Source: Dehalococcoidia bacterium
GTDB lineage: Bacteria > Chloroflexota > Dehalococcoidia > Lucifugimonadales > UBA3495
Assembly: GCA_965199995.1 (NCBI GenBank)
Contig: OZ241328.1
Location: 524,316 to 588,315, forward strand
Direction: 5' to 3'
Length of the DNA stretch: 64,000 nucleotides
Under the pieces are notes generated by a model. That model had not been told where the DNA came from. It saw only the letters and a program-made list of their open reading frames with translations, and searched no databases. Numbering within the stretch: position 1 is the first letter of the stretch; every line of letters begins with the position of its first letter. Below are positions 14,914 to 60,572 of the stretch, one piece after another. Both the position numbers and the translations under genes were made by a program.

Positions 14914-15038
14914 GGCGCTGCTCCTTGCTGTTGGATGGATTGGGTTCCCGCTCTCCGTTTTCACGGGGACAATCTTCGCGTGGAGGACTCTTTCGGGATA
15001 CCGACAAGTTCAGCCCTTGCTATTGGATTCCCGCTTTC

Positions 15039-15240
15039 GCGGGAATGACGGTGTGGTAGGCGGGAATGACGGTGTGGTAGGCGGGAATGATGGTGTGGTA
15101 GGCGGGAATGACGGTGTGGTAGGCGGGAATGACGGTGTGGTAGGCGGGAATGACGGTGTGGTAGGCGGGAATGACGGTGTGGTAGGCGGGAATGACGGTG
15201 TGGTAGGCGGGAATGACGGTGTGGTAGGCGGGAATGACGG
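15039..15240. repeat. 21-bp tandem repeat, ~9.7 copies (unit gcgggaatgacggtgtggtag)
   Basis: Nine full units starting at 15039, one with a C>T variant (15081-15101), plus a partial tenth. The array is contiguous with the REP hairpin at 15025-15050. Confidence 0.95.
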
Positions 15241-15306
15241 TGGCGGGCGGGAATCCCGTGATGGATTGGGAATGACATGGGAGAATCGGAATCACCTTTT
15301 GGCGGG

Positions 15307-18300
15307 TTATGGGCTGCGAATGCGAGCGAAACCTAGTATGTCGGTGTGCTTCCTGATGTAAGGAGTTCTGCTTTCGTCCGGGAATCCCAAGACTAAAATG
15401 GTATAGTCCGACGGTTCGCCTAGAGCCGCCGGGAAAGGAAACTCGACGGTGAAGGTCCGGGTTTCCGGGTAGTAGTTGTGCGTGGATGCTGCGGCGTCTG
15501 CCGGGTTTAGAATCCAATTGTCGCCCGGAAGGATGGAGCCGACGTACCCCCCGCCGTCCGCGGAGTATATCGTGAAATTGGAGTAATACAGCCCCTCGCT
15601 GGACGGGTTTTTGAGATTCACATCTTGGAATACCGCATCGCCCAGCAGCTTTCCTTCCAGCTTCACGGTACGTCCGTTGTATACGGGAAATTGCAGCCAT
15701 TCTACCAGACCATGATTCCGGTACGCCCCGGCATCGTCATAGGGGCGGTTCTCCGGCGCGTTCAGTCTGCCGGACCAGTGCTTATTGATGATGGCAGTCT
15801 GGCCGTGGAATGCCTGCCGTATCTCGGAGATGCCGGGGGGATCGTCTGGGTCCTCGGCTTCGAGAGACAGTTGATAAAGCTGGCGCAACCTTTGCTCGAA
15901 TTCGGCCTGGCCCATTGTTTCGAGCAGTTCCTGAAACAGCAACTGGCCCAAGTAATAATTGCAGTAGAATTGCGCGCTGTCCCTGCCAGGGTCAAGGGTT
16001 GCCAGCGTTTGCAAGTCTGGGGTTTCGCAGTCTTGCCGGTTGGCTTGCAACAGCCCGGGGCTTAATCCCGCTTCGACGCCGTAGATATGCTCGGTGACGT
16101 TGGCTAGGCCTTCGTCAATCCAGTCTGCGTTTCTTCGCCAGAAATAATGGGAGACTTCGTGGGTGACGCCCGACCGGAAGAGGTGCCTGCCGAGGGGGGT
16201 CTCATCGCTTTCCATCTCGGGAAGGTAGCTGAAGGCGAAGCCGAAGTTTACGCCGGCGGCTCCGCTGAAGACCGCGTGTTGGTTCAGCACTACAATCACG
16301 TGGCTTACGGTCAGCGGTAACTGCATCATCCCTTCGACTAATTCCACTGCGTCCCGCACGATCTTTGGGGTGCCAGGCTGAGGTTGTGTTCCGGTGCGGA
16401 CGATGCTGATTTTCAGGTCGGGGGAGCGGGTAGTTCCGGCGGAGACGGATTGGACTTTTGCGTAGCCGGGGTTGAGGAGGCGCTGGACTTCCTGGCGGTT
16501 CTTGAGGGTGCCGGCTGCCGCTACCAGGGTAGTCTGGGCGTCGGTGAATCCCATCTGCCCCTCCGGAGTATCCATCAGGGCGGACAGCAGGCCGTCATAC
16601 TCCAGGCTTTTCATAGCCTGCACCGCCAGCAGGTCATCGTATTCCAGGGATTCCAGGAAGGGCATGGCGATGATTTTTCTTACCGCATCGGGGTCATCAA
16701 GGGCGATCCAGTGCAAGTGCTTTAAAGTTTCTTCTTCCGACTCCGTGATGTCGTCTTGCACCCAGGGCAGGTTCAAGGCGTTTCTCAGATTGTCGAGGTC
16801 GTTGGCGCCTATGTAGAGCAGATCGTCTATATTCTCGCGCTCGCTTTCGGTCAGGCCGTCCGTAGCCCAGGGGAAGGACTGAATTTGCTCGTAGAGGTCG
16901 GGGTGTTGGCCTTTCAGCCATCGGGTGTTCTGAGTGTCGTATTGGGAGAACTCCATTGCGCCGGGCGCCAGTGTCGGCGCGGGCGTTGTTTCAGGCATGG
17001 CAGCGGGCGTTGCTGTCGGCATAGGCGTTGGTTCGGGCGTGGCGATGCGGGGAGTAGGCGATGGTGTAGCTGCCGGAGTAGGCGGCAATACCGGTGCTGG
17101 AGTCGGCATAGGCGAGAGCATTGCCGGGGAAGATAGAATGTCAATGGCCGAAAGGGTCTCCGAATCGCCGCACTGGTTGGCGTTACTATCCCAAACCGCC
17201 GGCGTCTCTACCGCCAGCACCAGGTTGCGGTAATTTTTCAGGCTGGGGCCATTCAGCTTGACCGTCGCCTCAAAAATTCCGTCGGCTGTCGTGCGTTGGC
17301 TGGTGACTTCCGCGAAGGTCGATTCGGTCCAGAATCTGCCGCTGGGCAACAAAGGGCTTATGAGGTCAATGTAATGGTAGCTGCCCGCGCTGTATTCATA
17401 TAGATGGAATTGGCCACAGTATCCATCCTGATAAGTTAGCCGTACAGCGCCGGGGGAAGCCTGGCCGGCAAATTGCATCGTGTCGCCGGTTATCGCAGGC
17501 GGAACAGACCACTGGATGGCGTTCAAATGATAGTGTTCGACTACTTTGAGGCCCTCCGGTATCCGGCCGGACACGACAGGAATCTCCGAGAAGGTCTCGC
17601 TGGGAAGGCAGAATCCATCCGGCCCGAGCCCGACGCGGCTTTCTAATGTCAGATGAAGGTTTCCGGCCTCCGCTAGGGACTTATGGTTGATTCGGGCGGT
17701 TATGCTGAATTGGCCCGTAGCCGGGTTAATCCGGCCATTTATGACGGCTGCCCCGGGGATTTCGTGATAATACCAGCCTACCAGCAGAGGCTCTGCAACG
17801 CCGGCTGCCCAGTCCCGTTGACCGCTGCCCCGATACAGTTGGAACTGGGAGCAGTAGGGATTGTCCTTCAGGATGAATTCCTCCAGCAGGCTAGGACTGC
17901 TGATTTCGCCGGCGAAGTGCAGGTATTCGCCGTCTATTGTGGGAGGGAAAGTCCAGGTCACGCTGCCGGATTGCCGGTCGTTTGCTACCGGCGTGGATGT
18001 TGGCGCTGGAGTGGGGGTAGCAGGGGGTGCCGGAGTCGGCTTTGAGGTTTGCGCCGGAACGGGCGGGGACGTCGGCGTCGCTACATTAGCCGCTAGCTGT
18101 GGCTTGGCGCTGGGCGTAGCGGTGTTTGCAGGAGGGGCGGGGGTGTCCTCGGGAGCCGGATTCGTTGGTGTTGCCGTGGCTACAACAGTAACGGTAACTG
18201 CCTCCGGCGGGGCGGTCGCAGCGTCATTGGCCGGTTGCGGAGCGTCGTCGGCGCAGGCGGTCAACACAGCCGCCAGACTGAATAACACCGCCAATGCCAG

Positions 18301-18318
18301 GAGGATTCGGAAAATCAT
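15307..18318 (-). CDS. secreted lipoprotein, putative zinc metallopeptidase with Pro/Thr-rich linkers and duplicated N-terminal domains
   Basis: 1003 aa. Signal peptide plus lipobox (AAVLTAC), two PT-rich linkers, an internal duplication (aa ~119-250 and ~268-395), and HEVSH (HEXXH) at aa 720-724 (nt 16147-16161). Confidence 0.65.
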   Translation of the reverse strand: MIFRILLALAVLFSLAAVLTACADDAPQPANDAATAPPEAVTVTVVATATPTNPAPEDTPAPPANTATPSAKPQLAANVATPTSPPVPAQTSKPTPAPPATPTPAPTSTPVANDRQSGSVTWTFPPTIDGEYLHFAGEISSPSLLEEFILKDNPYCSQFQLYRGSGQRDWAAGVAEPLLVGWYYHEIPGAAVINGRINPATGQFSITARINHKSLAEAGNLHLTLESRVGLGPDGFCLPSETFSEIPVVSGRIPEGLKVVEHYHLNAIQWSVPPAITGDTMQFAGQASPGAVRLTYQDGYCGQFHLYEYSAGSYHYIDLISPLLPSGRFWTESTFAEVTSQRTTADGIFEATVKLNGPSLKNYRNLVLAVETPAVWDSNANQCGDSETLSAIDILSSPAMLSPMPTPAPVLPPTPAATPSPTPRIATPEPTPMPTATPAAMPETTPAPTLAPGAMEFSQYDTQNTRWLKGQHPDLYEQIQSFPWATDGLTESERENIDDLLYIGANDLDNLRNALNLPWVQDDITESEEETLKHLHWIALDDPDAVRKIIAMPFLESLEYDDLLAVQAMKSLEYDGLLSALMDTPEGQMGFTDAQTTLVAAAGTLKNRQEVQRLLNPGYAKVQSVSAGTTRSPDLKISIVRTGTQPQPGTPKIVRDAVELVEGMMQLPLTVSHVIVVLNQHAVFSGAAGVNFGFAFSYLPEMESDETPLGRHLFRSGVTHEVSHYFWRRNADWIDEGLANVTEHIYGVEAGLSPGLLQANRQDCETPDLQTLATLDPGRDSAQFYCNYYLGQLLFQELLETMGQAEFEQRLRQLYQLSLEAEDPDDPPGISEIRQAFHGQTAIINKHWSGRLNAPENRPYDDAGAYRNHGLVEWLQFPVYNGRTVKLEGKLLGDAVFQDVNLKNPSSEGLYYSNFTIYSADGGGYVGSILPGDNWILNPADAAASTHNYYPETRTFTVEFPFPAALGEPSDYTILVLGFPDESRTPYIRKHTDILGFARIRSP

Positions 18319-19610: not shown

Positions 19611-19662
19611 TCCTTGGGGCAAAGAACCCTTGGGGCAAAGAACCCTTGGGGCAAAGAACCCT
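19611..19662. repeat. 16-bp tandem repeat x ~3.2 (cccttggggcaaagaa)
   Basis: Units at 19611, 19627 and 19643 plus a partial unit, immediately upstream of an extended -10 (TGCTATACT, 19664-19672). Confidence 0.9.
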
Positions 19663-19679
19663 GTGCTATACTCGCCGGG

Positions 19680-35382: not shown

Positions 35383-37908
35383 TCAGGCTTTGTAGACCCC
35401 ATTTAGACTAGCAAGGACTTGATCAAATTTAACGCCCCCAAACACGAGGCGGAAGGTGCCTTTGGCCGGGCCGTCGTTGATGGTCATTGTGCCGGCGTTG
35501 AAGGCGCGTTCCAAAGTCTCGAATACTTTCTTTTTATACTGCGTGTCGTCGTTGCCCTTGAGATGCTCGCCTTTGGTCTCGAATACCAGAATATGCGGTT
35601 TGCCGGTGGTGTCGCCAGCCATAGCCACAAAATCAGGCCAGATGCGTTCCCGTTTCCATCCCCGCAGATAATAGTCTCCTTGCTGGCGCACGGCCACCCG
35701 GTGCCACCAGTGCAGCGCCTTTTGCTCGTCCAGATAACGGGCGAAATTCCTCTCCAGGTCGCTATCGAAATGACGGGCCAGCACTGGCTCGAACAGCGAA
35801 ATTTGTAACGGCTTTCCATAGCTCTGCAAAGCGGATTCGTCTACGCTTACGGGGATTTCATAACTTTCCCGTACTTTGAAGCTGTGGTCGTTGGACTCCA
35901 GGTCGAAGCTGATTTCTCTCTGGCTAAGTTTGTCCAGGAAAATCTTTTCTGACAGATTTTCCACCTTTTCAGACACATGATCCCGCAATGACGCTGCCAG
36001 GTTGCCGCGCTGGTCGTAGATGGCATCACCGGTCATGCCGCCCCTGCGCCGATGATCTACCAACTCTGTCGCGATGCGGGCAGCCTGCCACGGATTAGGC
36101 ACTATGTCGGCCAGACGGCGGGCGAACCAGGATATGCAGACGGTTTTGTCAATGTAAATTTCCCGCTCAGGATGATAAACCTCTTGCTGGCCCCCGACGT
36201 CCACTGTGGCCGATTGTTGCCGGGCAGCCTGGTCCAGCCCACCGTGCGTTTCGGGGATGCCAATAGAGGCCCAATTGATATGCGGCAGTATGTGTTGCTG
36301 ATAATCCAGTTCGCGCCAGCCATCCCCATCCCGGTGATTGACCCTCGGCAAAAATATCTTCTGGCCCCGGAACTTTTTTCTACGCTCTAATTTTGTGCGC
36401 TGGAAATCCCCGGATTCTGAGACAACGTCATCTCCCAATCCGGTCATCCCTTCCTGCTCCAGCCCGTTCTTGACCTGCTTTACCGCAACCCCTACATCGG
36501 TGTTCCAGCAGTAGACATAGCACTGGTCCAGGGCTTCGCGCCCGGTGCGGCGGGCATGGGGCTGCCGCATCACCCGGCCCACTAGCTGGGTGATGGCGCG
36601 CTGCGCCGAGGTGTTGTCCAGCATCACCAGAACGTAGGCAAAGGGGCAATCCCAGCCTTCCATCAGGGCGGCGCGGGTGATTATCCATCGCACCGGCGAA
36701 TACTCCGACAGCAGGTCTTTGCGGCCCAGCTCGTCGTTTTCCGCCGACTTTACCAGTACCTGCTCGGCAGGAACACCCAGGTTTAGTGTCAGATACTGGC
36801 GCACGTCCTCGGCGTGAACCCGCTCGCCGTCCCGCTGGTCTTTGCCGGTGCGCTCCACTCGCACCACAGCGATGGGGCGGATGTAGCGGCCTTCGTTCGC
36901 TTCCAGCGACATCGCTTCGGCGGCGACGCGCTCCAGTTCTTCATGCGCCTGCCCCAAGGTGTACTGCCATTCGGCGCCAGGGAAGGTAGTTACCTGCACG
37001 GGCAGCTTTATCATTTCTTCGTCTTTCAGTTCGACGCCGGTGATGTCCACCAGCAGATTGCTGATGCGATGGTTGGGCGTGGCTGACAACTCTATGACCA
37101 TTTGCGGATTCAGACGGTTGACCGACTGGACGAACTCGCTGGCGTCATTGGCCCGGCCATAGGCTTTATGCGCTTCGTCGAGCACTACCACGGGACGCAT
37201 CATCTTGAAGACATTAAACAGGCTGTGCTTGACCTGCCCGCCCTCAGATGTTCGCTCCAAGTCTGGGTGTTGCTCCAGCAGGCGGCCGTCGCCCAAAGCG
37301 TCGTCGCTATCGGGAAACAGCGTCGGGTAGCGGCCCGAATCGTGGAACATCCGCAAAAACTCCCGGCCTTTCTGCCGGTTAGCGGCGGGCAGCATCAGCA
37401 GCATCACGCACAGATAGTTGTTGACATCGCCGAGGTTGAAAGGCGTTTCCTTTTCCAGCAGTTTGACGCGCCCGCCGCTGGCCCGCTCCAGCATCTGCCG
37501 GTAAGGATGTTCCCGGTTCTTGAGGGCTTCCCAAGTCTGCTGGTAGATGGCCTTAGTGGGCGTTATCCACAGCGTGAGGCTGGTAGGCCGATTCAGCCGT
37601 TCCAGCGCCGCGGCGGCCAGCAGAGTCTTGCCCCCGCCGGTGGGAACCTTGAAGCAGACGTGGGGGATGGGGCGCCCGGCCCCGTCGGTTCGCTCCACGT
37701 AGTCTTGAGACGGATTGGCTACCTCGCCGGCCTCGGCCAGCTTCTGCCAAGCGGCGCGGGGATAGTTGCGAACCTCGGAAGGCGCATCTAATCCGGCCTG
37801 TCGCAAAGCGGCGATACCGGCTTCGCTCTGCTCCTGCGCCGTTTCCAGCGCGCTCAGCCAGCGGCCAAAGGCGTCAAGGGCCTTACGCTGATACTCTTTC
37901 AGTTCCAA
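35383..37908 (-). CDS. res: Type III restriction enzyme Res subunit (SF2 helicase plus C-terminal PD-(D/E)XK nuclease)
   Basis: 841 aa. Walker A VPTGGGKT, DEAH box (VVLDEAHK), C-terminal PDFVAM...LVFETKGEH. It lies downstream of mod on the same strand. Confidence 0.85.
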   Translation of the reverse strand: MELKEYQRKALDAFGRWLSALETAQEQSEAGIAALRQAGLDAPSEVRNYPRAAWQKLAEAGEVANPSQDYVERTDGAGRPIPHVCFKVPTGGGKTLLAAAALERLNRPTSLTLWITPTKAIYQQTWEALKNREHPYRQMLERASGGRVKLLEKETPFNLGDVNNYLCVMLLMLPAANRQKGREFLRMFHDSGRYPTLFPDSDDALGDGRLLEQHPDLERTSEGGQVKHSLFNVFKMMRPVVVLDEAHKAYGRANDASEFVQSVNRLNPQMVIELSATPNHRISNLLVDITGVELKDEEMIKLPVQVTTFPGAEWQYTLGQAHEELERVAAEAMSLEANEGRYIRPIAVVRVERTGKDQRDGERVHAEDVRQYLTLNLGVPAEQVLVKSAENDELGRKDLLSEYSPVRWIITRAALMEGWDCPFAYVLVMLDNTSAQRAITQLVGRVMRQPHARRTGREALDQCYVYCWNTDVGVAVKQVKNGLEQEGMTGLGDDVVSESGDFQRTKLERRKKFRGQKIFLPRVNHRDGDGWRELDYQQHILPHINWASIGIPETHGGLDQAARQQSATVDVGGQQEVYHPEREIYIDKTVCISWFARRLADIVPNPWQAARIATELVDHRRRGGMTGDAIYDQRGNLAASLRDHVSEKVENLSEKIFLDKLSQREISFDLESNDHSFKVRESYEIPVSVDESALQSYGKPLQISLFEPVLARHFDSDLERNFARYLDEQKALHWWHRVAVRQQGDYYLRGWKRERIWPDFVAMAGDTTGKPHILVFETKGEHLKGNDDTQYKKKVFETLERAFNAGTMTINDGPAKGTFRLVFGGVKFDQVLASLNGVYKA

Positions 37909-37952
37909 TGCCGCCCCTGGATATTCTCAAAGTGCGCCGGTAATAGGACCGC

Positions 37953-38270
37953 CGCTCTCTCCCAATCATTGTCCGCCGCTCCTCGTCATTCCCGCGAAAG
38001 CGGGAATCTACGCTACTAACCTGCGAAAGATAGTATCTGCCCAAGTTCCTGGATTCCCGCTCCTCGTTTTCAAGGGGACAAGCTTTGCGGGAATGACGGG
38101 CACGCCGTCTGTCATCCCCCGTCGCTCTCTCCCAATCATTGTCCGCCGCCCCTCGTCATTCCCGCGAAAGCGGGAATCTACGCTACTAACCTGCGAAAGA
38201 TAGTATCTGCCCAAGTTCCTGTATTCCCGCTCCCCGTTTTCAAGGGGACAAGCTTTGCGGGAATGATGGG
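37953..38270. repeat. tandem duplication (period 170 bp) of a composite REP/MITE-like element between mod and res
   Basis: Copy 1 is at 37953-38100 and copy 2 at 38123-38270, with only a few mismatches. Each contains ttcccgcgaaagcgggaa and cccgctcc(c/t)cgttttcaaggggacaagctttgcggg hairpins. Confidence 0.9.
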
Positions 38271-38280
38271 AGGCTCCCAC

Positions 38281-40166
38281 CTATCTGCTGCGGGCTGTGT
38301 GGATTTCGTAGGGCAGTTGGCAGAAGGTGATGCCCATGCTGGTAAGCTCGCGCTGGCCGATGTACTTATCAGGGGCGAACACGATGGCTCCCTTGCCCTC
38401 GGCGCGGGCCGCCTTGCTGATGCTATGGGAGCGTTCTTGGTTCAGGGTTGCCTCGTTACTCCGCAGGTAATCCAGGTCGGGTTCATAGAACAGGTGATAG
38501 TTGTTCTTGCCGCTGCTGTAAAACAATCGGTCGCTCCCCTGGGGCCTCAACTTCCCTCTGCTTACGGATATGCCAGAGACAGTATGCACCAGATAGGCGG
38601 CCAGTTGGTCAAAGGAGGGCAGGGCCTCTCCGGTCAGCATACCTTCTAAGTCGATGGGTTCGCCTAGGGTGCAATAGGTGAAGGAGCCGCCCAGTCCCTC
38701 CCGCAACGCGGGGTCGCGGGCCCCCGGCACTCCGTTGATGACGCGGCGGACGCGCTCGGCGGTGATACTATCGGCGTAGTCTTCGCACTCGACGAGGATG
38801 AACTGGCGGTTGCCGCCGTCTTCCTGGTTCAGCGCGAGGACGGCGTGGGCCGTGGTGCCGCTGCCAGCGAAAGAATCGAGGACGATGTCGTTGTGGCCTG
38901 GTGCGCCGATCCTCAATAAATCCGACATCAAAGCAACTGCTTTGGGGTAGGGGAACCTTTCGTTAGCATCGTATAATATTTGAGAAAGTGTTTGTCCTCC
39001 AGCACGGCTACTATATTCGGCCTTGTAAAAGACTGATTTAGGTTTTTCTGTAGGTAAATCGCCGAGCTGAGGGCGTTGCTTTGAATATATTGCCATGCTA
39101 CCGTCCCTGCGTTGCTGAGCGAACACGTCGCTCGGGTTTTCACGCACTCTGGCTTTGCTCCAACGCCATATCGCCCGTGCCTCTCCGTTGCGAACCCTTG
39201 GGTTCACTGTAGTGAACGGTCCCCCAATATCTGGCTCTTCGTCATCGTTCGTGATGTGGACCGCTCCATCAGGACCCACAAAAATCGGGTAGTCAAGCGA
39301 CTCTGAGTACGTCAAACTACCGCGTTGCAGTAACTCTGGTTTGTAATACCCGGTGTCATCGCGGTGCCATTCTTCAAGAGCATTCCCTTGAACGGGAAAC
39401 CGTCCTAGATTTACTTCATTACGGTTTTTGGCGTACACCAAGCAATGCTCGTGGGCGCCGGCGAAACCAAATTGGTCGCTGCTACCCGCCAGATTTGCCA
39501 CGACGGCTAGATTAGCGATGAAGCTCGCCGCCCCCCAAACGTCGTCCATCATCATGCGCAGATGGTGCTGTTCGTTATCGTCGATGGAGACGAAAATGAC
39601 GCCATCGTCAGCAAGCAACTCTTTGAGCAGTTGCAGGCGGGGCCACATCATACAGAGCCACTTGTCGTGGCGTTCTAGGTCTTCGGTGTCAACGATTTGA
39701 TTCAGCCACTCCCTCATCAGGGGGCTGTTCACCTTGTCGTTATAGGCCCAGCCTTCATTGCCGGTGTTATAGGGCGGGTCGATGTAGATGCACTTGACGC
39801 GGTTGGCGTAGCGAGGAAGGAGGGCTTTGAGGGCGTGGAGGTTGTCGCCGTGGATGATGAGGTTACCGTCGGGCAGAACGGAATTAGAACTATCGTTCAG
39901 CTCTCTCTCTCTCTCTCTCTCGACATATGTTCTAATATCGACTTATCCGGGTGGGGAATCAGCGGACGGTGAGGAATAGTGAGGTGGTGGGCGTAGACAG
40001 TCTGCTTACCTTTGAACTCCAGGGAAGGCAAAGCACATCTCTCCGGCGGGTTGATGGAGTGTATACTACACCCCTCCGCGACAATTTTCATCATTGCATA
40101 TAGAGACCCCAGCAACTGCCGGGGCCGTTGTGGTTTGCGGAGAGGCCAGGGGTTAGGTCGAGTCAT
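38281..40166 (-). pseudogene. mod: Type III R-M Mod (beta-class N6-adenine methyltransferase) split by a (GA)10 tract; phase-OFF frameshift
   Basis: The downstream frame carries IIHGDNLHALKALLPRYANRVKCIYIDPPYNTG ... DSFAGSGTT and is open up to 39942 with no start codon. The upstream 89-codon ORF (ATG 40166) ends at TGA 39899-39897, directly after the tract. Removing 2 nt fuses them into 627 aa. Confidence 0.8.
39901..39921 (-). repeat. dinucleotide simple-sequence repeat, (GA)10G on the coding strand of mod
   Basis: The plus strand reads ctctctctctctctctctctc, located at the junction of the two mod reading frames. Confidence 0.97.
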
Positions 40167-40626
40167 CCTCCGGCGGGAGCAGATCTTCGAGGGGTATGCC
40201 TGTTTGCTGGGAAATCAAGGCCATACGCGCCTTCTGCCTCTTCCGCTCTTCGGCAAGGCCCTCAGCGTGGCCTTCAGCGCGACCCTCAGCGCGACCCTCA
40301 GCATGGCCTTCGACCCGGCCCTCGGCAAAGCCCTCGACCCGGCCCACAGCGCGGCCCACAGCTCTTGCCTCGGCCTCTATTTTCGCTCGCCTTTTCTGTC
40401 TTTGTTCCAGGGCCCAAAATACCATGTCCACACCTCTCTCTGCCAGTACGGCAAACATCCCGTAGATGACAACGGCCAGATCCACGAGGCTCGCCGCCGC
40501 TTCTAGTCTCTCCCATCCGCCCCATTGGCCCGACCTCTCTAATAGCAACAAGGTGACCACGAAAACCCCGAAGGGCGCTGCTATAGCGTGAAGCCTAAGC
40601 CATTTCATTCCCAGCCACTCTCCCAT
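40153..40626 (-). CDS. hypothetical two-TM membrane protein with a C-terminal (A/V)EG(R/H)-type repeat
   Basis: The start is probably M36 (40626). TM segments are AIAAPFGVFVVTLLLL and LVDLAVVIYGMFAVLA. Repeat: VGRVEGFAEGRVEGHAEGRAEGRAEGHAEGLAE. It overlaps the mod upstream ORF by 14 nt. Confidence 0.4.
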   Translation of the reverse strand: MGEWLGMKWLRLHAIAAPFGVFVVTLLLLERSGQWGGWERLEAAASLVDLAVVIYGMFAVLAERGVDMVFWALEQRQKRRAKIEAEARAVGRAVGRVEGFAEGRVEGHAEGRAEGRAEGHAEGLAEERKRQKARMALISQQTGIPLEDLLPPEDDST

Positions 40627-44084: not shown

Positions 44085-44284
44085 GGGCAATCGCATATGG
44101 GCGGCTTAACCCCCATCATTCCTAAACACCCATCACTCCCGCGAAGCTTGTGCCCGTGAAAACGGGGAGCGGGAATCCACGAACCTAATTAGGCGGCATC
44201 GTTCCGAAAGTCAGGCATCCTCAACGCTCCGGACTCCAGCTTTCCGCCGGGGTGGTTGGATTGTAATTTCATATGCGATTGCCC
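44085..44284. mobile_element. MITE-like copy of the composite repeat, bracketed by a perfect 15-bp inverted repeat
   Basis: gggcaatcgcatatg (44085-44099) and catatgcgattgccc (44270-44284) flank 170 bp that contain the family hairpin and the 57-nt core (44169-44226). Confidence 0.4.
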
Positions 44285-44338
44285 TGCTGTTTCCCGCCGC
44301 CCTTGCCACGGTAGTGCCATGCTACTATGATATAGCCC

Positions 44339-44884
44339 ATGGAAGAGAAGCAGGTTAAATATGCGTTGGGTCGGCTGTCGCAGATAGAACCCGTTACTTT
44401 TGGTGAGCCGGGGCGGCGCACCTTTCGGCTGGATTTGTACTCCGGCCCGGCTGTTTGCTCGCTATGGCTGGAGAAGGAGCAACTGTTCCAGCTTGGCGTA
44501 TATCTCCGCGATTATGTGGGCAGCTTGTCTGCGGAGGAACGGGAACGGGAAAGTGCGCCGCAGGAACCCGGCTGGCTGGGCGGAGAGACCACCATAGATT
44601 TCAAGGCCGGACAGATGTTCCTGAGCCACGACAAGGAAACTAACTCCTTCTTTATGCAGGCCCACGAGCGCGAGACAGGAGAAGAAGAGGAACGGACGCC
44701 CGGAGTAGAAGCCGATTCGGTTAGTTTCTGGATGACGCTAACTCAAGCCAGAGAATTGGCGGAAGAGTCGTTGCGCATTTGCGCCGCCGGCCGCCCCACC
44801 TGTTTCCTTTGTGGGCAGCCCATCAATCCCGATGGCCATGTGTGCCCGAGGGCCAACGGTCACACTATCCTAGAAGCCGGCTAA
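44339..44884 (+). CDS. DUF3090-family protein
   Basis: 181 aa. FGEPGRRTFRL...CAAGRPTCFLCGQPINPDGHVCPRANGH is typical of DUF3090/TIGR03847. Confidence 0.75.
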   Translation: MEEKQVKYALGRLSQIEPVTFGEPGRRTFRLDLYSGPAVCSLWLEKEQLFQLGVYLRDYVGSLSAEERERESAPQEPGWLGGETTIDFKAGQMFLSHDKETNSFFMQAHERETGEEEERTPGVEADSVSFWMTLTQARELAEESLRICAAGRPTCFLCGQPINPDGHVCPRANGHTILEAG

Positions 44885-44938
44885 CGCCCAGGGAAGCCGG
44901 CTAATGCCAGGCAGCCAACAGTACCGGACAGCCCCCGC

Positions 44939-45661
44939 TTGACTTCCGATAGCAAAGTCCAAGACGTGTTGCGCAATGGCGATATCCTGTCTTGCCAGTT
45001 GACGCGCCTCGGCTCCAACTACACCTTCGTGGTTAACGTCGCGCTGGATGGGGATGAGGCACTGGGCATCTACAAGCCGCGGGACGGCGAAGCTCCGCTG
45101 TGGGACTTCCCCAACGGCACCCTCTACAAGCGCGAGTACGCTGCCTACCTGCTTAGCGACATCCTAGGCTGGAATCTGATCCCCTTCACGCTCATCCGCG
45201 ACGGGCCTTACGGCATCGGTTCGGTGCAGGAATTCATTATCCACGACCCTAAAGAGAACTATTACACCCTGGGGCGGGAATACGCCGACCAGTTGCGCGT
45301 CATCTGTTGCTTCGACTTGGTGGCTAACAGTACCGACCGGAAGCCGAACCACCTCATCACCGGCGGGGACGGCAAGCTGTGGAGCATTGATCACGGGCTG
45401 ACCTTCCACTCTGACGTGAAAATCCGTACAGTCATTTGGGATTTTGGCGGGGAGCCTATTCCGGACGCGCTGCTGGATAGCCTGACGGAGTTGCAGTCCC
45501 GTCTTATGGGCCCCGAAAAGAGTATGCCGAAGCTTTTGCGGGAGCTACTGGAACTGCTGACGCCGCCGGAAGTGGAGGCGCTGAAGGGCCGGTTGGACTG
45601 GGTGCTGACCGAGCGCGTCTTCCCCGGACTGCAACGCCCCAGGCGCCGGCGCAGGGGCTGA
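44939..45661 (+). CDS. SCO1664-family protein (PI3/4-kinase-like fold)
   Basis: 240 aa with a TTG start. GSNYTFVV...IYKPRDGEAPLWDFPNGTLYKREYAAY...DRKPNHL...IDHGLTFH. Confidence 0.7.
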   Translation: MTSDSKVQDVLRNGDILSCQLTRLGSNYTFVVNVALDGDEALGIYKPRDGEAPLWDFPNGTLYKREYAAYLLSDILGWNLIPFTLIRDGPYGIGSVQEFIIHDPKENYYTLGREYADQLRVICCFDLVANSTDRKPNHLITGGDGKLWSIDHGLTFHSDVKIRTVIWDFGGEPIPDALLDSLTELQSRLMGPEKSMPKLLRELLELLTPPEVEALKGRLDWVLTERVFPGLQRPRRRRRG

Positions 45662-45687
45662 CAAGGGCGAGGCAAGAGGGCAAGGGA

Positions 45688-46065
45688 ATGGCGGTGGAAA
45701 GAATTAGCGCGATTACCTTGGCGGTAACGGATATGGCCCGCTCGGTGGTGTTCTATCGCGATTACGTGGGATTGAACCTTTTATACGGCGGCGAACAGGC
45801 CTCCTTCACCAGCTTTCGCGTGGGCGAAGGTTTCGTCAATCTCATGCTGCGCGACGAACAGACGCGCTGGTGGGGCCGGCTGATTTTCCACGTGGACGAC
45901 GTTGACGCGCACTACCGGCGGTTAACCGGCTTCGGCCTGACTCCGTCAACCGTTCCCTCTGATGCGCCGTGGGGCGAGCGCTACTTCCACATAGACGATC
46001 CGGACGGCCACGAACTTAGCTTTGCCAAGCCTCTTCTGGCGGACAGATGCCGGGCTAGGTGTTGA
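45688..46065 (+). CDS. VOC/glyoxalase family protein
   Basis: 125 aa. ISAITLAVTDMARSVVFYRDYVGL...DPDGHELSF. Confidence 0.75.
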   Translation: MAVERISAITLAVTDMARSVVFYRDYVGLNLLYGGEQASFTSFRVGEGFVNLMLRDEQTRWWGRLIFHVDDVDAHYRRLTGFGLTPSTVPSDAPWGERYFHIDDPDGHELSFAKPLLADRCRARC

Positions 46066-47134
46066 TCAGAAAGTTGATAACGTCGCCATCTTTCACCGGG
46101 TAGGTCTTGCCTTCGGAGCGCAGTACTCCCTCTTTGCGGCCTTGGGCAATGCTGCCGCAGCGAATCAGGTCGTCGTAGTGAATCACTTCGGCGCGGATGA
46201 ACCCCCGGGTAAAGTCCGTGTGGATTGTTCCTGCGGCGTCCAGGGCGGGTATCCCGTCGGGAACGGGCCAGGCGCGGACTTCATCTTCGCCCACGGTCAG
46301 AAACGAGACCAATCCCACGGTGTCATAGCAGACCTGCTTGACTCGGTCTACGGCGGACTCGCTGATGCCGAGGGCGTCGCGGAACTCTTCTCCCTCTTCT
46401 TCGGGCATGGACGCCAAGTCTGCTTCCAGTCGGGCGCATAGCTGAACCTCCCCCAGCCCGGCGGTCATTTCCGGGGGCAACCCCAGACCAGACAACACTG
46501 GCGTTCCGGCGGACTCGCCGGTGTTGAAGGCAACGACGATGGGTTTATCCGTGAGCAACTGGTAGTCGGACATAGCCGAGCGTTCCGATGCTGATAATTC
46601 CTGGTGTCGCATACGGATGCCGGACTCGAGGAAATCCTTCACTTTACGCACTGCGTCCGCCTGAGCCTGAACTGCCGGACGCTCGGCGGGGCGGGTCTTG
46701 CGGAGGGCATCGTCAAAGCGGGTTTCTGCGCGCTCCAGAGTTTCTAGGTCTGCAAGGGTCAGTTCATTGAGCATTTCGGACAATTCGCTGGCCGGATTGG
46801 CGGGGCCTTGCAAGTCGTCCTCGAAAGCCCTTACCACCAGGAGCAGCGAGTCGGCGCCCTGGAGGATGTTGCGGTGCCGGCCTGAGAGCGTCTGATGGCG
46901 GTTAGCCCGGTCTGCGGGAGCGGGAGGCAAGTCCCAGAACTTGATTTCTGCGAGGACTGTTTTGCGGGGATGATACATCTCTTTCAGCACGGCAATCCGG
47001 CTGTCTACAACCTTGACCACTCCCACCTGCACTGGGCCGGCGCTTCCGCCGTCCGTGGTGGCGTGTCCTGAAGTAAGAGCATTGAAAGTAGCGGTCTTGC
47101 CGCTCAAGGGAAGGCCGATGATAGCGATGTCCAT
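46055..47134 (-). CDS. ychF: redox-regulated ATPase YchF
   Basis: 359 aa. IIGLPLSGKTATFNALT P-loop and C-terminal TGS/DUF933 region (IHTDFTRGFIRAEV). Confidence 0.88.
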   Translation of the reverse strand: MDIAIIGLPLSGKTATFNALTSGHATTDGGSAGPVQVGVVKVVDSRIAVLKEMYHPRKTVLAEIKFWDLPPAPADRANRHQTLSGRHRNILQGADSLLLVVRAFEDDLQGPANPASELSEMLNELTLADLETLERAETRFDDALRKTRPAERPAVQAQADAVRKVKDFLESGIRMRHQELSASERSAMSDYQLLTDKPIVVAFNTGESAGTPVLSGLGLPPEMTAGLGEVQLCARLEADLASMPEEEGEEFRDALGISESAVDRVKQVCYDTVGLVSFLTVGEDEVRAWPVPDGIPALDAAGTIHTDFTRGFIRAEVIHYDDLIRCGSIAQGRKEGVLRSEGKTYPVKDGDVINFLINT

Positions 47135-47244
47135 GCCTGGGTTGTGCTCCTGTCAATTCTGGTTCGGATCGGGTTATGCCAACATATTTCTTATTGCCCG
47201 GTAATTGGTGATTTGCCGGAGCGACGGGACGAAGGTTGAATACC

Positions 47245-47544
47245 CTATATCCTACAACAGCCCGGCAACAGCCCGGCTGCTTCGGTCTGCTGGGCGGTGT
47301 CGGCCGGCAGGGTTCCTGCAAACGTCCGTCCGCCGGTTAAAGTAATTTGCCAGCGGCTTTCTGGGCTTTTAAGGAGCTTATAAGGGAAATCAAAGGGATA
47401 GACCGTCACCTCCGCCAGCGCCAGCAATGCGGTGGGCTTTCCCGAATTGTTCGGGCCGACAAACAGGTTCACTCGCTCGTCGAACTCGAAGGTGATGTCG
47501 TCGAAAGGCCCTGCGTTAGTGATTCTGAAACTGCTTACAGGCAT
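47245..47544 (-). pseudogene. N-terminal remnant of an SMC/RecF-like AAA ATPase
   Basis: 99 aa. FRITNAGPFDDITFEFDERVNLFVGPNNSGKPTALL has a degenerate Walker A (GKP instead of GKS/T). No Walker B or signature region follows. Confidence 0.5.
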
Positions 47545-47575
47545 TCTGCGTCCCGGCGGCTCCCCTTCGGGGCCG

Positions 47576-48697
47576 CTAATAAGATTGGAAGAGGCGGCCC
47601 CATTCGGTCTTAAGGGCGGCCTCTATGCGGCGGCGGCCCTTGGTCTTGAGCCAGTAGCCGTTGTGATACAGGTTCGAGGCCAGGAAAGCCCAGCCAACTA
47701 TCGGGCTTCGCAGCAGCATATTCTCCAAGGGCTTGAGCGGTCCCCAATAGATGAGCTTCTGTCCCCGGCTGGCAAAGGTATTCTCAACGCCGGAGAACTT
47801 CCAGTTGACGTCGCTGATGTCCTCGCCCCGCACGTCAATATCAGCGATTTCGCCGCAGCCCAGGCCGCGCTCGTGAGCCAGGCGTATGAAGGGGATGCTC
47901 ATAGGGTCGAAGCCCATCATCTTTGCGGCCACAGCGTCTATCGCCACTTGGTCGGCACTGGCCAGGATGCGGTTCTTGACGTGCCAGCGCATGGCGCGGG
48001 GGCCTGGGCCGTCGCCGGCGAAGGTGCCGTCCATCACCGCGAACAGGCCTGGGTGAATTTCCTGCTGGATGGCCAGCAGGTCAACCAGGGTCTCATGGAT
48101 GACCGAGTGGGTCCAGTGGCGCTTGCGGTGCAGCAGCCCCCCGAAGGCGTTCTTCATGGCGCCGGTCATAGTAGTGAACACGTGAGTCTTCATCGTGGGG
48201 AGCTGGACGATGTTGGTTCCTGGGAAGGATTCCGGTATCTGTATGCCCTCGGGGAAAATATCGTCCAGCGCCAGCATCTCGGCGCGGGGCTTGTAGTCAA
48301 TCCAGCGATTGGGCGGGCTGTCCAGGTGGATGGCCGACAATCCGACTCGATCTTGGGCGGCCTTATGCCTATTGTTGGCTTCACCTTCGTAGGAATCTAC
48401 GACTACCGTGCCGTTGTGGGCGGCTATCAGGTCGTTATGCCCCATGGCCCTAAGCGTGTTGGCAACGCCCTCAATCTGCCAGGGAGTTGACGAGCATCCC
48501 GGATACCAGTGCTGCCAGGATATGTTCACCTTGAGCAGGGTGCGATTTCCCGGGGGCAGGAACTCGCCGGCGCCGGCCAGGGCCATAGCGCGGGCGATGT
48601 CGTCCAGCACCGTCTCTGGCGTGGCGGCAACTACGGCGACCACTGGAGCCGTGGCAGTTCGGGCCGAGGGGTGGACAGGGGCTTGTTGGGTCTGCAT
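47576..48697 (-). CDS. DUF362 domain-containing protein
   Basis: 373 aa. The LLKVNISW...TTPWQIEGV-like core resembles DUF362. Confidence 0.5.
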   Translation of the reverse strand: MQTQQAPVHPSARTATAPVVAVVAATPETVLDDIARAMALAGAGEFLPPGNRTLLKVNISWQHWYPGCSSTPWQIEGVANTLRAMGHNDLIAAHNGTVVVDSYEGEANNRHKAAQDRVGLSAIHLDSPPNRWIDYKPRAEMLALDDIFPEGIQIPESFPGTNIVQLPTMKTHVFTTMTGAMKNAFGGLLHRKRHWTHSVIHETLVDLLAIQQEIHPGLFAVMDGTFAGDGPGPRAMRWHVKNRILASADQVAIDAVAAKMMGFDPMSIPFIRLAHERGLGCGEIADIDVRGEDISDVNWKFSGVENTFASRGQKLIYWGPLKPLENMLLRSPIVGWAFLASNLYHNGYWLKTKGRRRIEAALKTEWGRLFQSY

Positions 48698-48796
48698 CTA
48701 ATTCATCCTGAGCTTATCGAGGGAGTTATACCGCATCTAGCCGACGAGATTCCCTGCGAGCTGGGCGCGCTGCTGTGCGCCCAATAACATATTATC

Positions 48797-49687
48797 CTAC
48801 CCGTTTAACAGGAGCACCACCGCCGACACCGCCAGCCAGGCAACGATGCACGCTATCAGCGGAAGGTCTCGCACCATCAACTGCTCTGGAGCCTCGGCGT
48901 GGTTGCTGGTGTTCAGAAGGTACAGGTACCGGAACAGCCCCAGCGCCACCAGCGGCAGGGTGAACAGCATGGCGTTGTTGTCGGGCAGATTTTCCGCTTC
49001 GATGGTATATAAAGTATAGCTGAGCAACGCCGCCGTTGCCGAGATGTTCAGGAGTTGGGATATGAACGGCCCGGGATAGTGGGCAAGCACCCGGCGTTGA
49101 AGGGCCGCGTTGTCCCCGGCTATACGGACTTCGGCGTACCGGCGGCCTAGGACGATGAACAACGCCCCGGCCCCGGTGGTGGTGTAGAGCCAGGGCGATG
49201 GGTCGACGTCTATGGCTAGCGCCCCAGAAACGGCGCGGATGACATAGCCGCTGGCTACCGAGAACACGTCTAGCAGCGCCACGTTCTTGCCGCCAAGGCA
49301 ATAGACCGCGTTGATGGCGAGATAGACGGCGGAGACAAGCAACAGGGGCAGTCCTACGTACCCCATGGCGGCCAGTCCGGCGATGGTCAGGAGGGCAATC
49401 AGCGCAGTGGCCGCCGGGATTCCTACTCGGCCGGAGGCGATGGGCCGGTGCCGCTTTCGGGGATGCTCGCGGTCGGCGCGGCGGTCCATCAGGTCATTGA
49501 AGATGTAAACGCCGCTGGACAAGGCGCAGAAGCCAAGGAACAGCATAGCCAGCTGCCCCAGCAGTTGGGGGATGTCTCCCAGCGCATCCACTGACCAGGC
49601 GATCTCTACGGCGAACAGGAAGGGGAGAAACACCAGACCGTTCTTGACCCATTGCAACGGTCTGAGAAGGCGGAATACGTCTGCCAT
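48797..49687 (-). CDS. UbiA-family prenyltransferase, decaprenyl-phosphate phosphoribosyltransferase-like
   Basis: 296 aa. LRPLQWVKNGLVFLPFLFA and NDLMDRRADREHPRKRHRPIASG. Confidence 0.7.
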   Translation of the reverse strand: MADVFRLLRPLQWVKNGLVFLPFLFAVEIAWSVDALGDIPQLLGQLAMLFLGFCALSSGVYIFNDLMDRRADREHPRKRHRPIASGRVGIPAATALIALLTIAGLAAMGYVGLPLLLVSAVYLAINAVYCLGGKNVALLDVFSVASGYVIRAVSGALAIDVDPSPWLYTTTGAGALFIVLGRRYAEVRIAGDNAALQRRVLAHYPGPFISQLLNISATAALLSYTLYTIEAENLPDNNAMLFTLPLVALGLFRYLYLLNTSNHAEAPEQLMVRDLPLIACIVAWLAVSAVVLLLNG

Positions 49688-49696
49688 TTACCGAAC

Positions 49697-50095
49697 CTAA
49701 CGGCGCGGGGCGCCCGCCGGCCCCGGAGGGGTCGATGGGGAGGCCCTTTCGATGCCCCGCAGCAGGGAGTACCAGGCGCCGAGAAACGACATACTGCCAT
49801 AGTAGAAAGTGGCCACCACCACTCCGCCCCACAGCAGGAACGGGTAGGCGAAATCTCCGGCCAGCGTAACTATGACAGCCGCGGCCACCGTTATGACTCC
49901 CACAACGGAGCCCAGCCACAAACCGTAAGCCAAGGCCTTCCGGCCCGGCGAACCGGGGTAATCTCTGGCCGGATTGATTCCGAAATAGCCTGCGATGAAG
50001 GGGCCGGCGGGCACTCCCACGAAATGCACAACGGGGATAATGGCTAGAAGGAGAACCACTCCTAGCCCGATGAACACGCCTTTAATCATTGCCAC
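49697..50095 (-). CDS. hypothetical integral membrane protein
   Basis: 132 aa with four predicted hydrophobic segments. GTG at 50095 or ATG at 50089. A TATAAT -10 lies on the minus strand at 50134-50129. Confidence 0.5.
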   Translation of the reverse strand: MAMIKGVFIGLGVVLLLAIIPVVHFVGVPAGPFIAGYFGINPARDYPGSPGRKALAYGLWLGSVVGVITVAAAVIVTLAGDFAYPFLLWGGVVVATFYYGSMSFLGAWYSLLRGIERASPSTPPGPAGAPRR

Positions 50096-50153
50096 AAGCC
50101 AACCGAGAGGAGTATAAACAGCGCCGGTATTATATCCGAAAAGCGTCCTCTTT

Positions 50154-50830
50154 CCCGGACGTTATTGGCCCGGACGTTATTGGCCCGGACGTTATTGGCC
50201 CGGACGTTATTGGCCCGGACGTTATTGGCCCGGACGTTATTGGCCCGGACGTTATTGGCCCGGACGTTATTGGCCCGGACGTTATTGGCCCGGACGTTAT
50301 TGGCCCGGACGTTATTGGCCCGGACGTTATTGGCCCGGACGTTATTGGCCCGGACGTTATTGGCCCGGACGTTATTGGCCCGGACGTTATTGGCCCGGAC
50401 GTTATTGGCCCGGACGTTATTGGCCCGGACGTTATTGGCCCGGACGTTATTGGCCCGGACGTTATTGGCCCGGACGTTATTGGCCCGGACGTTATTGGCC
50501 CGGACGTTATTGGCCCGGACGTTATTGGCCCGGACGTTATTGGCCCGGACGTTATTGGCCCGGACGTTATTGGCCCGGACGTTATTGGCCCGGACGTTAT
50601 TGGCCCGGACGTTATTGGCCCGGACGTTATTGGCCCGGACGTTATTGGCCCGGACGTTATTGGCCCGGACGTTATTGGCCCGGACGTTATTGGCCCGGAC
50701 GTTATTGGCCCGGACGTTATTGGCCCGGACGTTATTGGCCCGGACGTTATTGGCCCGGACGTTATTGGCCCGGACGTTATTGGCCCGGACGTTATTGGCC
50801 CGGACGTTATTGGCCCGGACGTTATTGGAC
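50154..50830. repeat. perfect 15-bp tandem array, 44 full units plus partial ends (~45 copies; unit gttattggcccggac)
   Basis: Eleven consecutive 60-nt lines (50161-50820) are identical, each holding four units. The array is intergenic between divergent genes. Confidence 0.97.
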
Positions 50831-50857
50831 AGATAGAGTAATCGAGGAGGCCCATAT

Positions 50858-51250
50858 TTGTCTGGCGGCGATAATTCCCCTTTCCTGCGTTTCGTTGGCA
50901 TTGAAGAAGGTCTGTCGGAGAAGGGCGTAGGCAGCGTTTCGATGGCAATTCAGCCCCATCACCTTCAGGCCGCCGGTCAGGTTCACGGCGGGCTGATGGC
51001 GGTTCTGGTGGATACTGCCTTTTTCCGCGCCGTCCGCTCCACACTGGCGCCGAATCAGCGTACCACCACTGTCGAGCTGAAGGTGAATTTCCTGGAGAGC
51101 GCGAGCTCCGGCTGCCTCACCGCCACTGCCAGGATAATCGGCAGCAGTAACCGCCTGACGGTTGCGGACGTTGAAGTCGTCTCGGACGATGGCCGGCTTG
51201 TAGCTCAGGGCCTCGGAACATTCCTTGTTATGAACGGGGAAAGCGGCTGA
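50858..51250 (+). CDS. PaaI-family (hotdog fold) thioesterase
   Basis: 130 aa. TTG start with a GAGGAGG RBS at 50844-50850. HHLQAAGQVHGGLMAVLVDTA motif. Confidence 0.75.
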   Translation: MSGGDNSPFLRFVGIEEGLSEKGVGSVSMAIQPHHLQAAGQVHGGLMAVLVDTAFFRAVRSTLAPNQRTTTVELKVNFLESASSGCLTATARIIGSSNRLTVADVEVVSDDGRLVAQGLGTFLVMNGESG

Positions 51251-60232: not shown

Positions 60233-60460
60233 CTACTGGTCTTGCAGGCGGCGGAGTTGTTCCCGTAGCCGCTCCACCTCTGCCAACGCCGCGTCGTGCT
60301 CGGCTTCAGAGGCCAATCGGGCGGCGCGTTCCTCGCCGACGCTGCGCAGATAGCGGCCGGTTTCGTAATACAACCGCCGGCGGTTGCGGCGCACAGGCAC
60401 AGGTCGCGGCCAATCATACCAACGACGTGCAGGAGCCGGCGGTCTGCGGCGCACAGGCAC
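60233..60460 (-). CDS. hypothetical Arg/Pro-rich protein with a C-terminal coiled coil; possibly the 3' part of a decayed longer gene
   Basis: 75 aa with a GTG start, preceded by an in-frame TGA and further copies of the PVPVRRRPPA-encoding repeat (60385-60555). Confidence 0.3.
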   Translation of the reverse strand: MPVRRRPPAPARRWYDWPRPVPVRRNRRRLYYETGRYLRSVGEERAARLASEAEHDAALAEVERLREQLRRLQDQ

Positions 60461-60572
60461 AGGTCACGGCCAATCATACCAGCCGGCGGTCTGCGGCGCA
60501 CAGGCACAGGTGCATACCAACGAGCCGGCGGTCTGCGGCGCATAGGCACAGGTCTAGGGCGGTGCTGTAACC

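Follow-up and report, generated by a model that had tools for sequence, protein, structure and literature searches.

Non-coding satellites are sparse in prokaryotic genomes, with a median of 0-3 per Mb, and most of them are short (PMC6749651). Tandem repeats that are perfect, of local origin, and specific to one genome have been documented, as have VNTRs in promoters (PMC9879509, PMC6749651, PMC12817950). In M. tuberculosis, VNTR3690 lies upstream of lpdA and is built of 58-bp units, four copies of which give 12.5-fold the expression of one (PMC12817950). In H. influenzae, a (TA)n tract is found between hifA and hifB, and 7-bp (TGAAAGA) arrays of 13-38 copies are located upstream of hmw1A and hmw2A (PMC2651432). 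The perfect tandem repeats of Borgs have been studied as well, and secondary structure was proposed as their trigger (PMC9879509).

The window analyzed here is a 64-kb (64,000 nucleotides) stretch of DNA from a Dehalococcoidia bacterium, and it contains a perfect tandem array at positions 50154-50828 (no strand). Tandem Repeats Finder reports 45.0 copies of the 15-bp unit CCCGGACGTTATTGG with 100% matches, 0 indels, and a score of 1350, and a pattern search of the window finds 44 full exact units of GTTATTGGCCCGGAC at 50161-50820. The units abut head-to-tail without spacers. The periodic run is exactly 675 bp long and is broken by a t at 50153 and an a at 50829. A first-pass annotation of this DNA had described a perfect array of about 45 copies of a 15-bp unit, which both searches recover. 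Its length of 677 bp counted one mismatch and one chance match. Because there is a mismatch on both sides, the run has neither a flanking partial repeat nor microhomology. Each unit has 2 A in 15 and 60% G+C, and holds three 4-bp palindromes (ACGT, GGCC, and CCGG). Five of the six reading frames are open across the array, and the frame shared with the downstream thioesterase gene is closed by a TAG at 50834-50836. A chimeric query of five repeat peptides matched none of 5.8 billion protein clusters.

By its anatomy and origin, the array is probably a young, lineage-specific minisatellite (VNTR). It shares with bacterial VNTRs and minisatellites (Subirana & Messeguer 2019, PMC6749651; MLVA loci) the head-to-tail direct repeats without spacers, a unit of 10-100 bp, the intergenic position, an origin from local sequence, and restriction to a lineage. 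Its 45 copies and its perfection are at the high end for this group, and whereas VNTRs are defined by strain polymorphism, the array is classed by anatomy and origin. The Borg repeats (PMC9879509) are likewise made of substitution-free units, local in origin, unique to their locus, absent in a close relative, and thought to be recent and fast-evolving. However, they are A-rich, usually have flanking partial repeats, and are carried by an archaeal extrachromosomal element, whereas the unit described here has few A, the run has no flanking partial, and the host is a bacterial chromosome. VNTR3690 of M. tuberculosis likewise directly precedes a gene, within a cis-regulatory region, and short reads cannot resolve it either, but the 54-58-bp units of M. 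tuberculosis duplicate whole promoters and additional copies raise expression. The unit of the present array is part of a -35 region and has no -10. The H. influenzae loci resemble it in having a repeat within a divergent promoter (hif) or a long array between promoter and gene start (hmw). They differ in their 2- and 7-bp units, their surface-structure genes, and their demonstrated phase or graded variation; the present array has a 15-bp unit, lies between metabolic genes, and is classed from sequence. The array is real, yet as a bacterial tandem-repeat expansion it is of an ordinary type. Nothing indicates a new kind of system or a dedicated function, and the array is noteworthy for its size, its perfection, and an exceptionally clear ancestral state.

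That the array is present in the organism is supported by independent data. Exact-protein look-ups returned Logan contigs from many SRA runs that match the window at 99.8-99.96% identity, with 1-3 mismatches per 2-9.5 kb. Eight of these SRA-run contigs enter the array, four from the right (SRR33960553, SRR33991086, SRR33991087, and SRR33991078) and four from the left (SRR33960554, SRR33960552, SRR33991096, and SRR33960551), with identical junction sequences. They end inside the array, 30 nt deep in seven and 20 nt deep in one (L004). A stop at 30 nt is k-1 of a 31-mer graph, which indicates a k-mer loop in the reads and therefore more than ~3 units. In the window, the array is in the interior of a contig of >1 Mb and not at a contig end, and its 15-bp period is unrelated to any usual k. 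The first-pass annotation had raised the possibility of an assembly artefact. Because the same junctions occur in eight independent short-read runs, the array is not the artefact of a single assembly, and for its presence this explanation was rejected; the copy number of 45 comes from the window assembly alone, and the look-ups turned up no second long-read assembly of the species. It is distinctly unlikely that the array is real while assembly or polishing gave rise to its 45 copies and perfection and the actual array is materially shorter, longer, or heterogeneous. Short-read assemblies fail to cross the array, and consensus polishing can homogenize repeats, both of which would fit such an origin. 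The position inside a long contig and the period speak against it, as do the close relatives in the collection, which are closed long-read chromosomes and suggest like data for the window. Moreover, collapsing the repeat gives the ancestral spacer length of 108 bp exactly, so the junctions are correct. All eight samples that reach the array contain it, and it appears to be fixed in the sampled population. As a practical warning, all short-read assemblies of this population break at the array locus.

The array separates two divergent transcription units. On the minus strand, gene calls and a Pfam scan place a small membrane protein of no known family as the first gene of an operon (49697-50089, or 50095), followed by a UbiA-family prenyl/phosphoribosyl transferase (48797-49687) and a DUF362 protein (47576-48697). 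The Logan gene calls start the membrane protein at the ATG at 50089, which gives 130 aa. The best NCBIfam match of the UbiA protein is decaprenyl-phosphate phosphoribosyltransferase, just below the cut-off. On the plus strand, gene calls and domain models identify a hotdog-fold (4HBT/PaaI-like) thioesterase of 130 aa with a TTG start (50858-51250) that passes the TIGR00369 domain model and misses the PaaI equivalog cut-off. Its Shine-Dalgarno sequence, GAGGAGG (50844-50850, plus strand), is strong, and GGAGG is conserved at this site in the nearest clade. The membrane-protein gene, by contrast, has no Shine-Dalgarno-like sequence in the ~30 nt from the inferred start site to the ATG/GTG, either here or in relatives. 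The gene calls of the first-pass annotation for both units agree with the Pfam scan and the Logan calls, and the elements that it quoted (TATAAT at 50134-50129, TAGAGT at 50834-50839, the GAGGAGG, and the TTG at 50858) are all found where it placed them.

Among the ten flanking genes, the Pfam scan recognizes YchF, ComM/YifB, a glyoxalase, DUF3090 with a partner kinase-like protein, and an Rrf2 regulator 6 kb off. No rep, par, DNA-binding, or mobile-element genes adjoin the array in this set, no tRNA or tmRNA was found, and the cumulative GC skew has no turn at the array site. Compared with the nearest relatives, L006 and L026, the ~7-kb block from DUF3090 to the thioesterase (44274-51241), within which the array lies, has the opposite orientation. 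In those two relatives the thioesterase has the Rrf2 gene as its neighbor, and DUF3090 has ComM/YifB. Neither breakpoint of the inversion coincides with the array.

The ancestral state of the spacer can be read from relatives. Searching with the UbiA protein gave 80 loci. Those closest to the window belong to Dehalococcoidia MAGs, and many of these MAGs are closed chromosomes (3-5 Mb). Even the nearest representative genome shares only ~82% DNA identity with the window (~18% different), so the window's species has no representative there and the origin of the array falls inside the lineage. The divergent arrangement of the thioesterase against the membrane-protein/UbiA/DUF362 operon is syntenic in ~45 of the 80 loci. 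The two start codons are 104-123 bp apart in 27 close relatives, and in most of these the spacer measures 108-110 bp. The spacer of the window is 768 bp, or 108 + 44x15 (108 + 660), and after removal of 44 units the 108 bp that are left align end to end with the relatives. The single-copy unit aligns with an ordinary, poorly conserved stretch starting at a conserved CCCG. From this arithmetic and the single homologous segment in relatives, it follows that the array is an in-place amplification of one 15-bp segment.

The first-pass annotation had called for a search for the 15-mer elsewhere, and this returned nothing beyond chance in the window and nothing arrayed in relatives. The sole other match in the 64 kb, at 37144, has 2 mismatches, falls within a coding ORF, and is no more than chance would give: dinucleotide shuffling yields an expectation of 0.16 matches with ≤2 mismatches, which the 44 exact units of the array exceed by far. 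No relative has the unit twice, and among the fetched loci it occurs only in contigs of the same population. Searches with a 1.5-unit pattern gave no match in 185,579 species genomes (GTDB), in JGI metagenomes, or in IMG/VR. Judged by these comparisons, the unit is not a dispersed or mobile sequence, and the array arose after the lineage split from every sequenced relative. The locus is an unusually clean natural example of the birth of a minisatellite: the single-copy ancestor is found in dozens of syntenic relatives, the insertion point is base-exact, and the flanking promoter motifs are conserved. Other changes of the spacer occur in relatives, namely REP-like elements (L024 and L034), ~150 bp (L025 and L027), and duplications of 13-17 bp (L020 and L033), which indicates that the locus tolerates changes in length.

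The promoter of the minus-strand operon is recognizable by its conservation. In an alignment of 28 sequences (alignment A1), the TATAAT at 50129-50134 on the minus strand (ATTATA on the plus strand), 19 bp from the array edge, is invariant in 28 of 28 species. The six invariant columns correspond to the minus-strand TATAAT, and the neighboring column, which a plus-strand hexamer would require, varies (T in 19, C in 8, and A in 1). The -10 that the first-pass annotation had assigned to this side is thus upheld, and TATAAT (50134-50129) is inferred to be the -10 box of the membrane-protein/UbiA/DUF362 operon. It is abutted by a TCCGAAA block (50135-50141, no strand), within which the commonest base of the TC(C)GAA columns (A1 columns 10-15) is found in 21-28 of 28 sequences. 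Next comes the motif TTTCCCGG (CCGGGAAA on the minus strand) at 50151-50158, about -29 to -36 from the TATAAT-derived start and therefore at the -35 position; the commonest base in its CCCG columns occurs in 24-27 of 28 sequences. CCGGGAAA is unlike TTGACA and could be an unusual -35 element or a conserved site for an activator or regulator. The core ATTATA-TC(C)GAA-N14-15-CCCG is kept across 28 Dehalococcoidia species whose proteins differ by 11-26%. A consensus promoter scan of both strands of 49950-51000 found no promoter.

The array begins at 50154, inside the TTTCCCGG motif. It had been proposed that the terminal units occupy the -35/UP positions of the two promoters, and on the minus side the first unit does overlap the -35 element. 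That first unit, however, is ancestral sequence out to about -46, so the expansion adds nothing new to the minus-side core promoter. Later units carry CCGGGCC, not CCGGGAA, and have no -10. As the unit lacks a -10, promoters are not multiplied. By this comparison, the core promoter of the operon (TATAAT, the TCCGAAA block, and the CCCG motif, to about -46) is intact.

The thioesterase side is affected differently. Relatives have ~45-75 nt from the conserved box to the thioesterase start, and in the window this start is 660 bp further from the conserved core. The structural consequence of the array is therefore asymmetric, with the operon core promoter untouched and the thioesterase displaced. 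Between the CCCG motif and the Shine-Dalgarno sequence, no -10-like sequence is found in the nearest clade, and a promoter scan of L006 and L026 is also empty. Upstream of the box, a thioesterase-sense TGGTCA-N17/18-TAGAAT occurs only in the L012/L016 clade. Taken together, these two observations indicate that the ancestral thioesterase promoter was most likely located upstream of the insertion point. The thioesterase would then be read through a ~735-nt repetitive leader or from a new, weak promoter at the array end. The -10 and -35 of the conserved promoter are not separated by the array, which is upstream of the thioesterase Shine-Dalgarno sequence; an effect on thioesterase expression is possible.

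A new promoter has one candidate. TAGAGT, a -10-like hexamer at 50834-50839 on the plus strand, is 5 bp past the array and is specific to the lineage; relatives have ATCGGT, TTCGGG, or ATCGTT at this position. The first-pass annotation had paired it with the last unit as TTGGCC-N18-TAGAGT. This proposal is weakened, since the pair has 8/12 consensus positions, falls below the threshold of the promoter scan, and implies a start at ~50846, inside the GAGGAGG. What is left of it is that TTGGCC-N18-TAGAGT is the only candidate for a new thioesterase promoter and that TAGAGT could be a newly arisen -10. A lineage-specific TAGAGT beside the array hints at adaptation after the expansion.

These features bear on whether the array acts as an expression rheostat or contingency locus, in which frequent changes in copy number would set thioesterase expression through leader length or through a -35 (TTGGCC) for TAGAGT. 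This is unlikely; the mechanism would resemble that of the H. influenzae hmw1A/hmw2A 7-bp repeats or the M. tuberculosis promoter repeats. The setting is favorable, with the array between the conserved promoter core and the thioesterase Shine-Dalgarno sequence, an ancestral promoter that probably lay upstream of the insertion, and a TAGAGT that is new in the lineage. The array is also kept in eight samples, and there are precedents (PMC2651432, PMC12817950). However, a 15-bp unit without a -10 does not multiply promoters in the way that the 54-58-bp units of M. tuberculosis do, and transcription from the 8/12 pair would start within the Shine-Dalgarno sequence. The flanking genes are also of a housekeeping type rather than the surface or restriction genes typical of contingency loci. 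Such loci have units of 1-8 nt and targets in surface, restriction-modification, or host-interaction genes, and here the unit is 15 bp and the genes encode a thioesterase and UbiA/DUF362 proteins. If copy number is variable and affects the thioesterase, repeat-based expression tuning, so far described mainly from pathogens, would extend to uncultured Chloroflexota.

Centromeres and iterons typically contain short sites in regular arrays. The first-pass annotation had suggested such roles, and the array could in principle bind a protein as an iteron, a partition centromere, a nucleoid-protein loading site, or a decoy for a factor that reads CCCGG. Every unit does repeat the conserved CCCGG found at the operon -35 position. 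Nevertheless, a protein-binding array is highly improbable. No rep, parA/parB, parM/parR, or DNA-binding gene adjoins it in what is a chromosomal housekeeping context, the unit was found neither elsewhere in the window nor in relatives or public collections, and contiguous 15-bp units are out of helical phase. In addition, no relative has an array at the locus, although a functional one would be expected in some of the ~45 syntenic relatives. The absence of partner genes, of other copies of the unit, and of conservation in relatives counts against the iteron and centromere roles of the earlier proposal. Several known classes were rejected individually. Plasmid and phage iterons come with a rep gene or origin and 3-7 spaced sites of 17-22 bp, and the locus has no rep, 45 contiguous 15-bp units, and no GC-skew turn. 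A partition centromere of the parC/parS type would be accompanied by parA/parM and parB/parR, neither of which is found in the ten flanking genes. A CRISPR array has unique spacers, and here the units abut. A structured or cis-regulatory RNA was also rejected: Rfam has no match at the gathering score or E≤1, RNAalifold predicts no pairs, and per-sequence z values are ~0.

The formation of the array probably began with duplication of one 15-bp segment, CCCGGACGTTATTGG, within the ancestral divergent promoter spacer of ~108 bp. Growth to ~45 copies would then have proceeded by replication slippage and/or unequal sister-strand exchange. Next to the insertion point is a small hairpin (AGCGTCC, loop TCTTTCCC, GGACGTT; 50142-50163, plus strand; ViennaRNA) whose 3' arm is the start of the unit, and the 38-nt one-copy segment that holds it has a predicted folding energy of -10.8 kcal/mol. 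Ten units (150 nt) are predicted to fold back at -60 and -66 kcal/mol on the two strands. This hairpin and the GGCC, CCGG, and ACGT palindromes of the unit probably helped, as the single strand folds back on itself; hairpin, palindromes, and fold-back together would favor polymerase stalling and slipped mispairing. Once several copies were present, the growing repeat, now 675 bp and perfect, would have been ample substrate for unequal exchange. The array has no dedicated machinery and most likely no selected function of its own. A small stem near TTTCCCGG can be seen by eye in several relatives. A conserved hairpin under the array was nevertheless ruled out by RNAalifold, which predicts no pairs in the spacer, and by shuffles, against which the mean z across relatives is about -0.3 (~0) on either strand.

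The age of the array is bounded by its lack of substitutions. Flanking sequence differs between the window and the other samples by ~5e-4 per site (10 mismatches in ~18.4 kb). By simple arithmetic, if the 675-bp array dated back as far as the whole sampled population, the probability that it had stayed free of mutations would be ~0.8, and zero substitutions bound its age at ~0.4% lineage divergence. Given the low flanking divergence, perfection means that the array is recent on the scale of species, and active homogenization is not required. From the identity of the units, the first-pass annotation had offered recent expansion, homogenization, or artefact, and it is recent expansion that this bound supports.

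Some observations do not sit easily with a young minisatellite lacking a selected function. Forty-five error-free copies are at the high end for bacterial non-coding repeats, and selection for length is possible. Its apparent fixation in all eight samples would be less likely for a purely deleterious insertion. There is no junction microhomology to account for the first duplication. A combined explanation would be that hairpin-seeded repeat making is locally elevated and that the 45-copy array has been kept as a length-variable insulator or rheostat, which uncouples the thioesterase from the shared divergent promoter, with TAGAGT as a -10 that uses the last unit as its -35. This is unlikely; if true, the array would be the bacterial-chromosome counterpart of the Borg repeats with a regulatory pay-off.

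The window contains other repeats. Three non-coding arrays are found within the 64 kb, with units of 15 bp (x 45), 21 bp (x 9.7), and 16 bp (x 3.2). At thresholds of ≥3 copies, ≥95% identity, and a period of ≥7, this is three arrays in 64 kb versus a single array (15 bp x 4.2, in L017) in 580 kb from the loci of close relatives. The two counts are not directly comparable, since the sequence from relatives was all taken from around one conserved locus. The window genome may make tandem repeats at an elevated rate. The second array (15039-15242, 98%, unit GCGGGAATGACGGTGTGGTAG) is situated between an M20 peptidase gene (13822-14964, minus strand) and a 1003-aa ORF without a Pfam family (15307-18318, minus strand). 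Its start coincides exactly with the 3' arm of a perfect hairpin of the REP-like type, ATTCCCGC-TTTC-GCGGGAAT (15027-15046). The 15-bp and 21-bp arrays both start at a hairpin 3' arm, which fits hairpin-seeded slippage.

The REP-like palindrome ATTCCCGC-N4-GCGGGAAT occurs at five sites in the 64 kb (9723, 15027, 37988, 38158, and 53027) against 0.07 expected, and REP-like copies are inserted in the orthologous thioesterase/operon spacer of L024 and L034. This palindrome is not in the 15-bp unit but belongs to the separate 21-bp array at 15039, and a REP/BIME-derived array was rejected. Within a Type III restriction-modification system, the interval from res (35383-37908) to mod (38281-39732) holds a 170-bp composite element, consisting of a REP-like hairpin and a second hairpin, that is duplicated 1.9 times at 96% identity (37949-38270). 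Imperfect repeats within ORFs that have no Pfam match are present at 40257-40362 (12 bp x 8.8, 73%) and 60433-60554 (42 bp x 2.8, 85%) and may be coding repeats. The third non-coding array, CCTTGGGGCAAAGAAC, is perfect and occupies a -35 region (19612-19662). Directly downstream of it come TGCTATACT (19664-19672), which resembles an extended -10 box, and the ATG of a NUDIX gene (19680).
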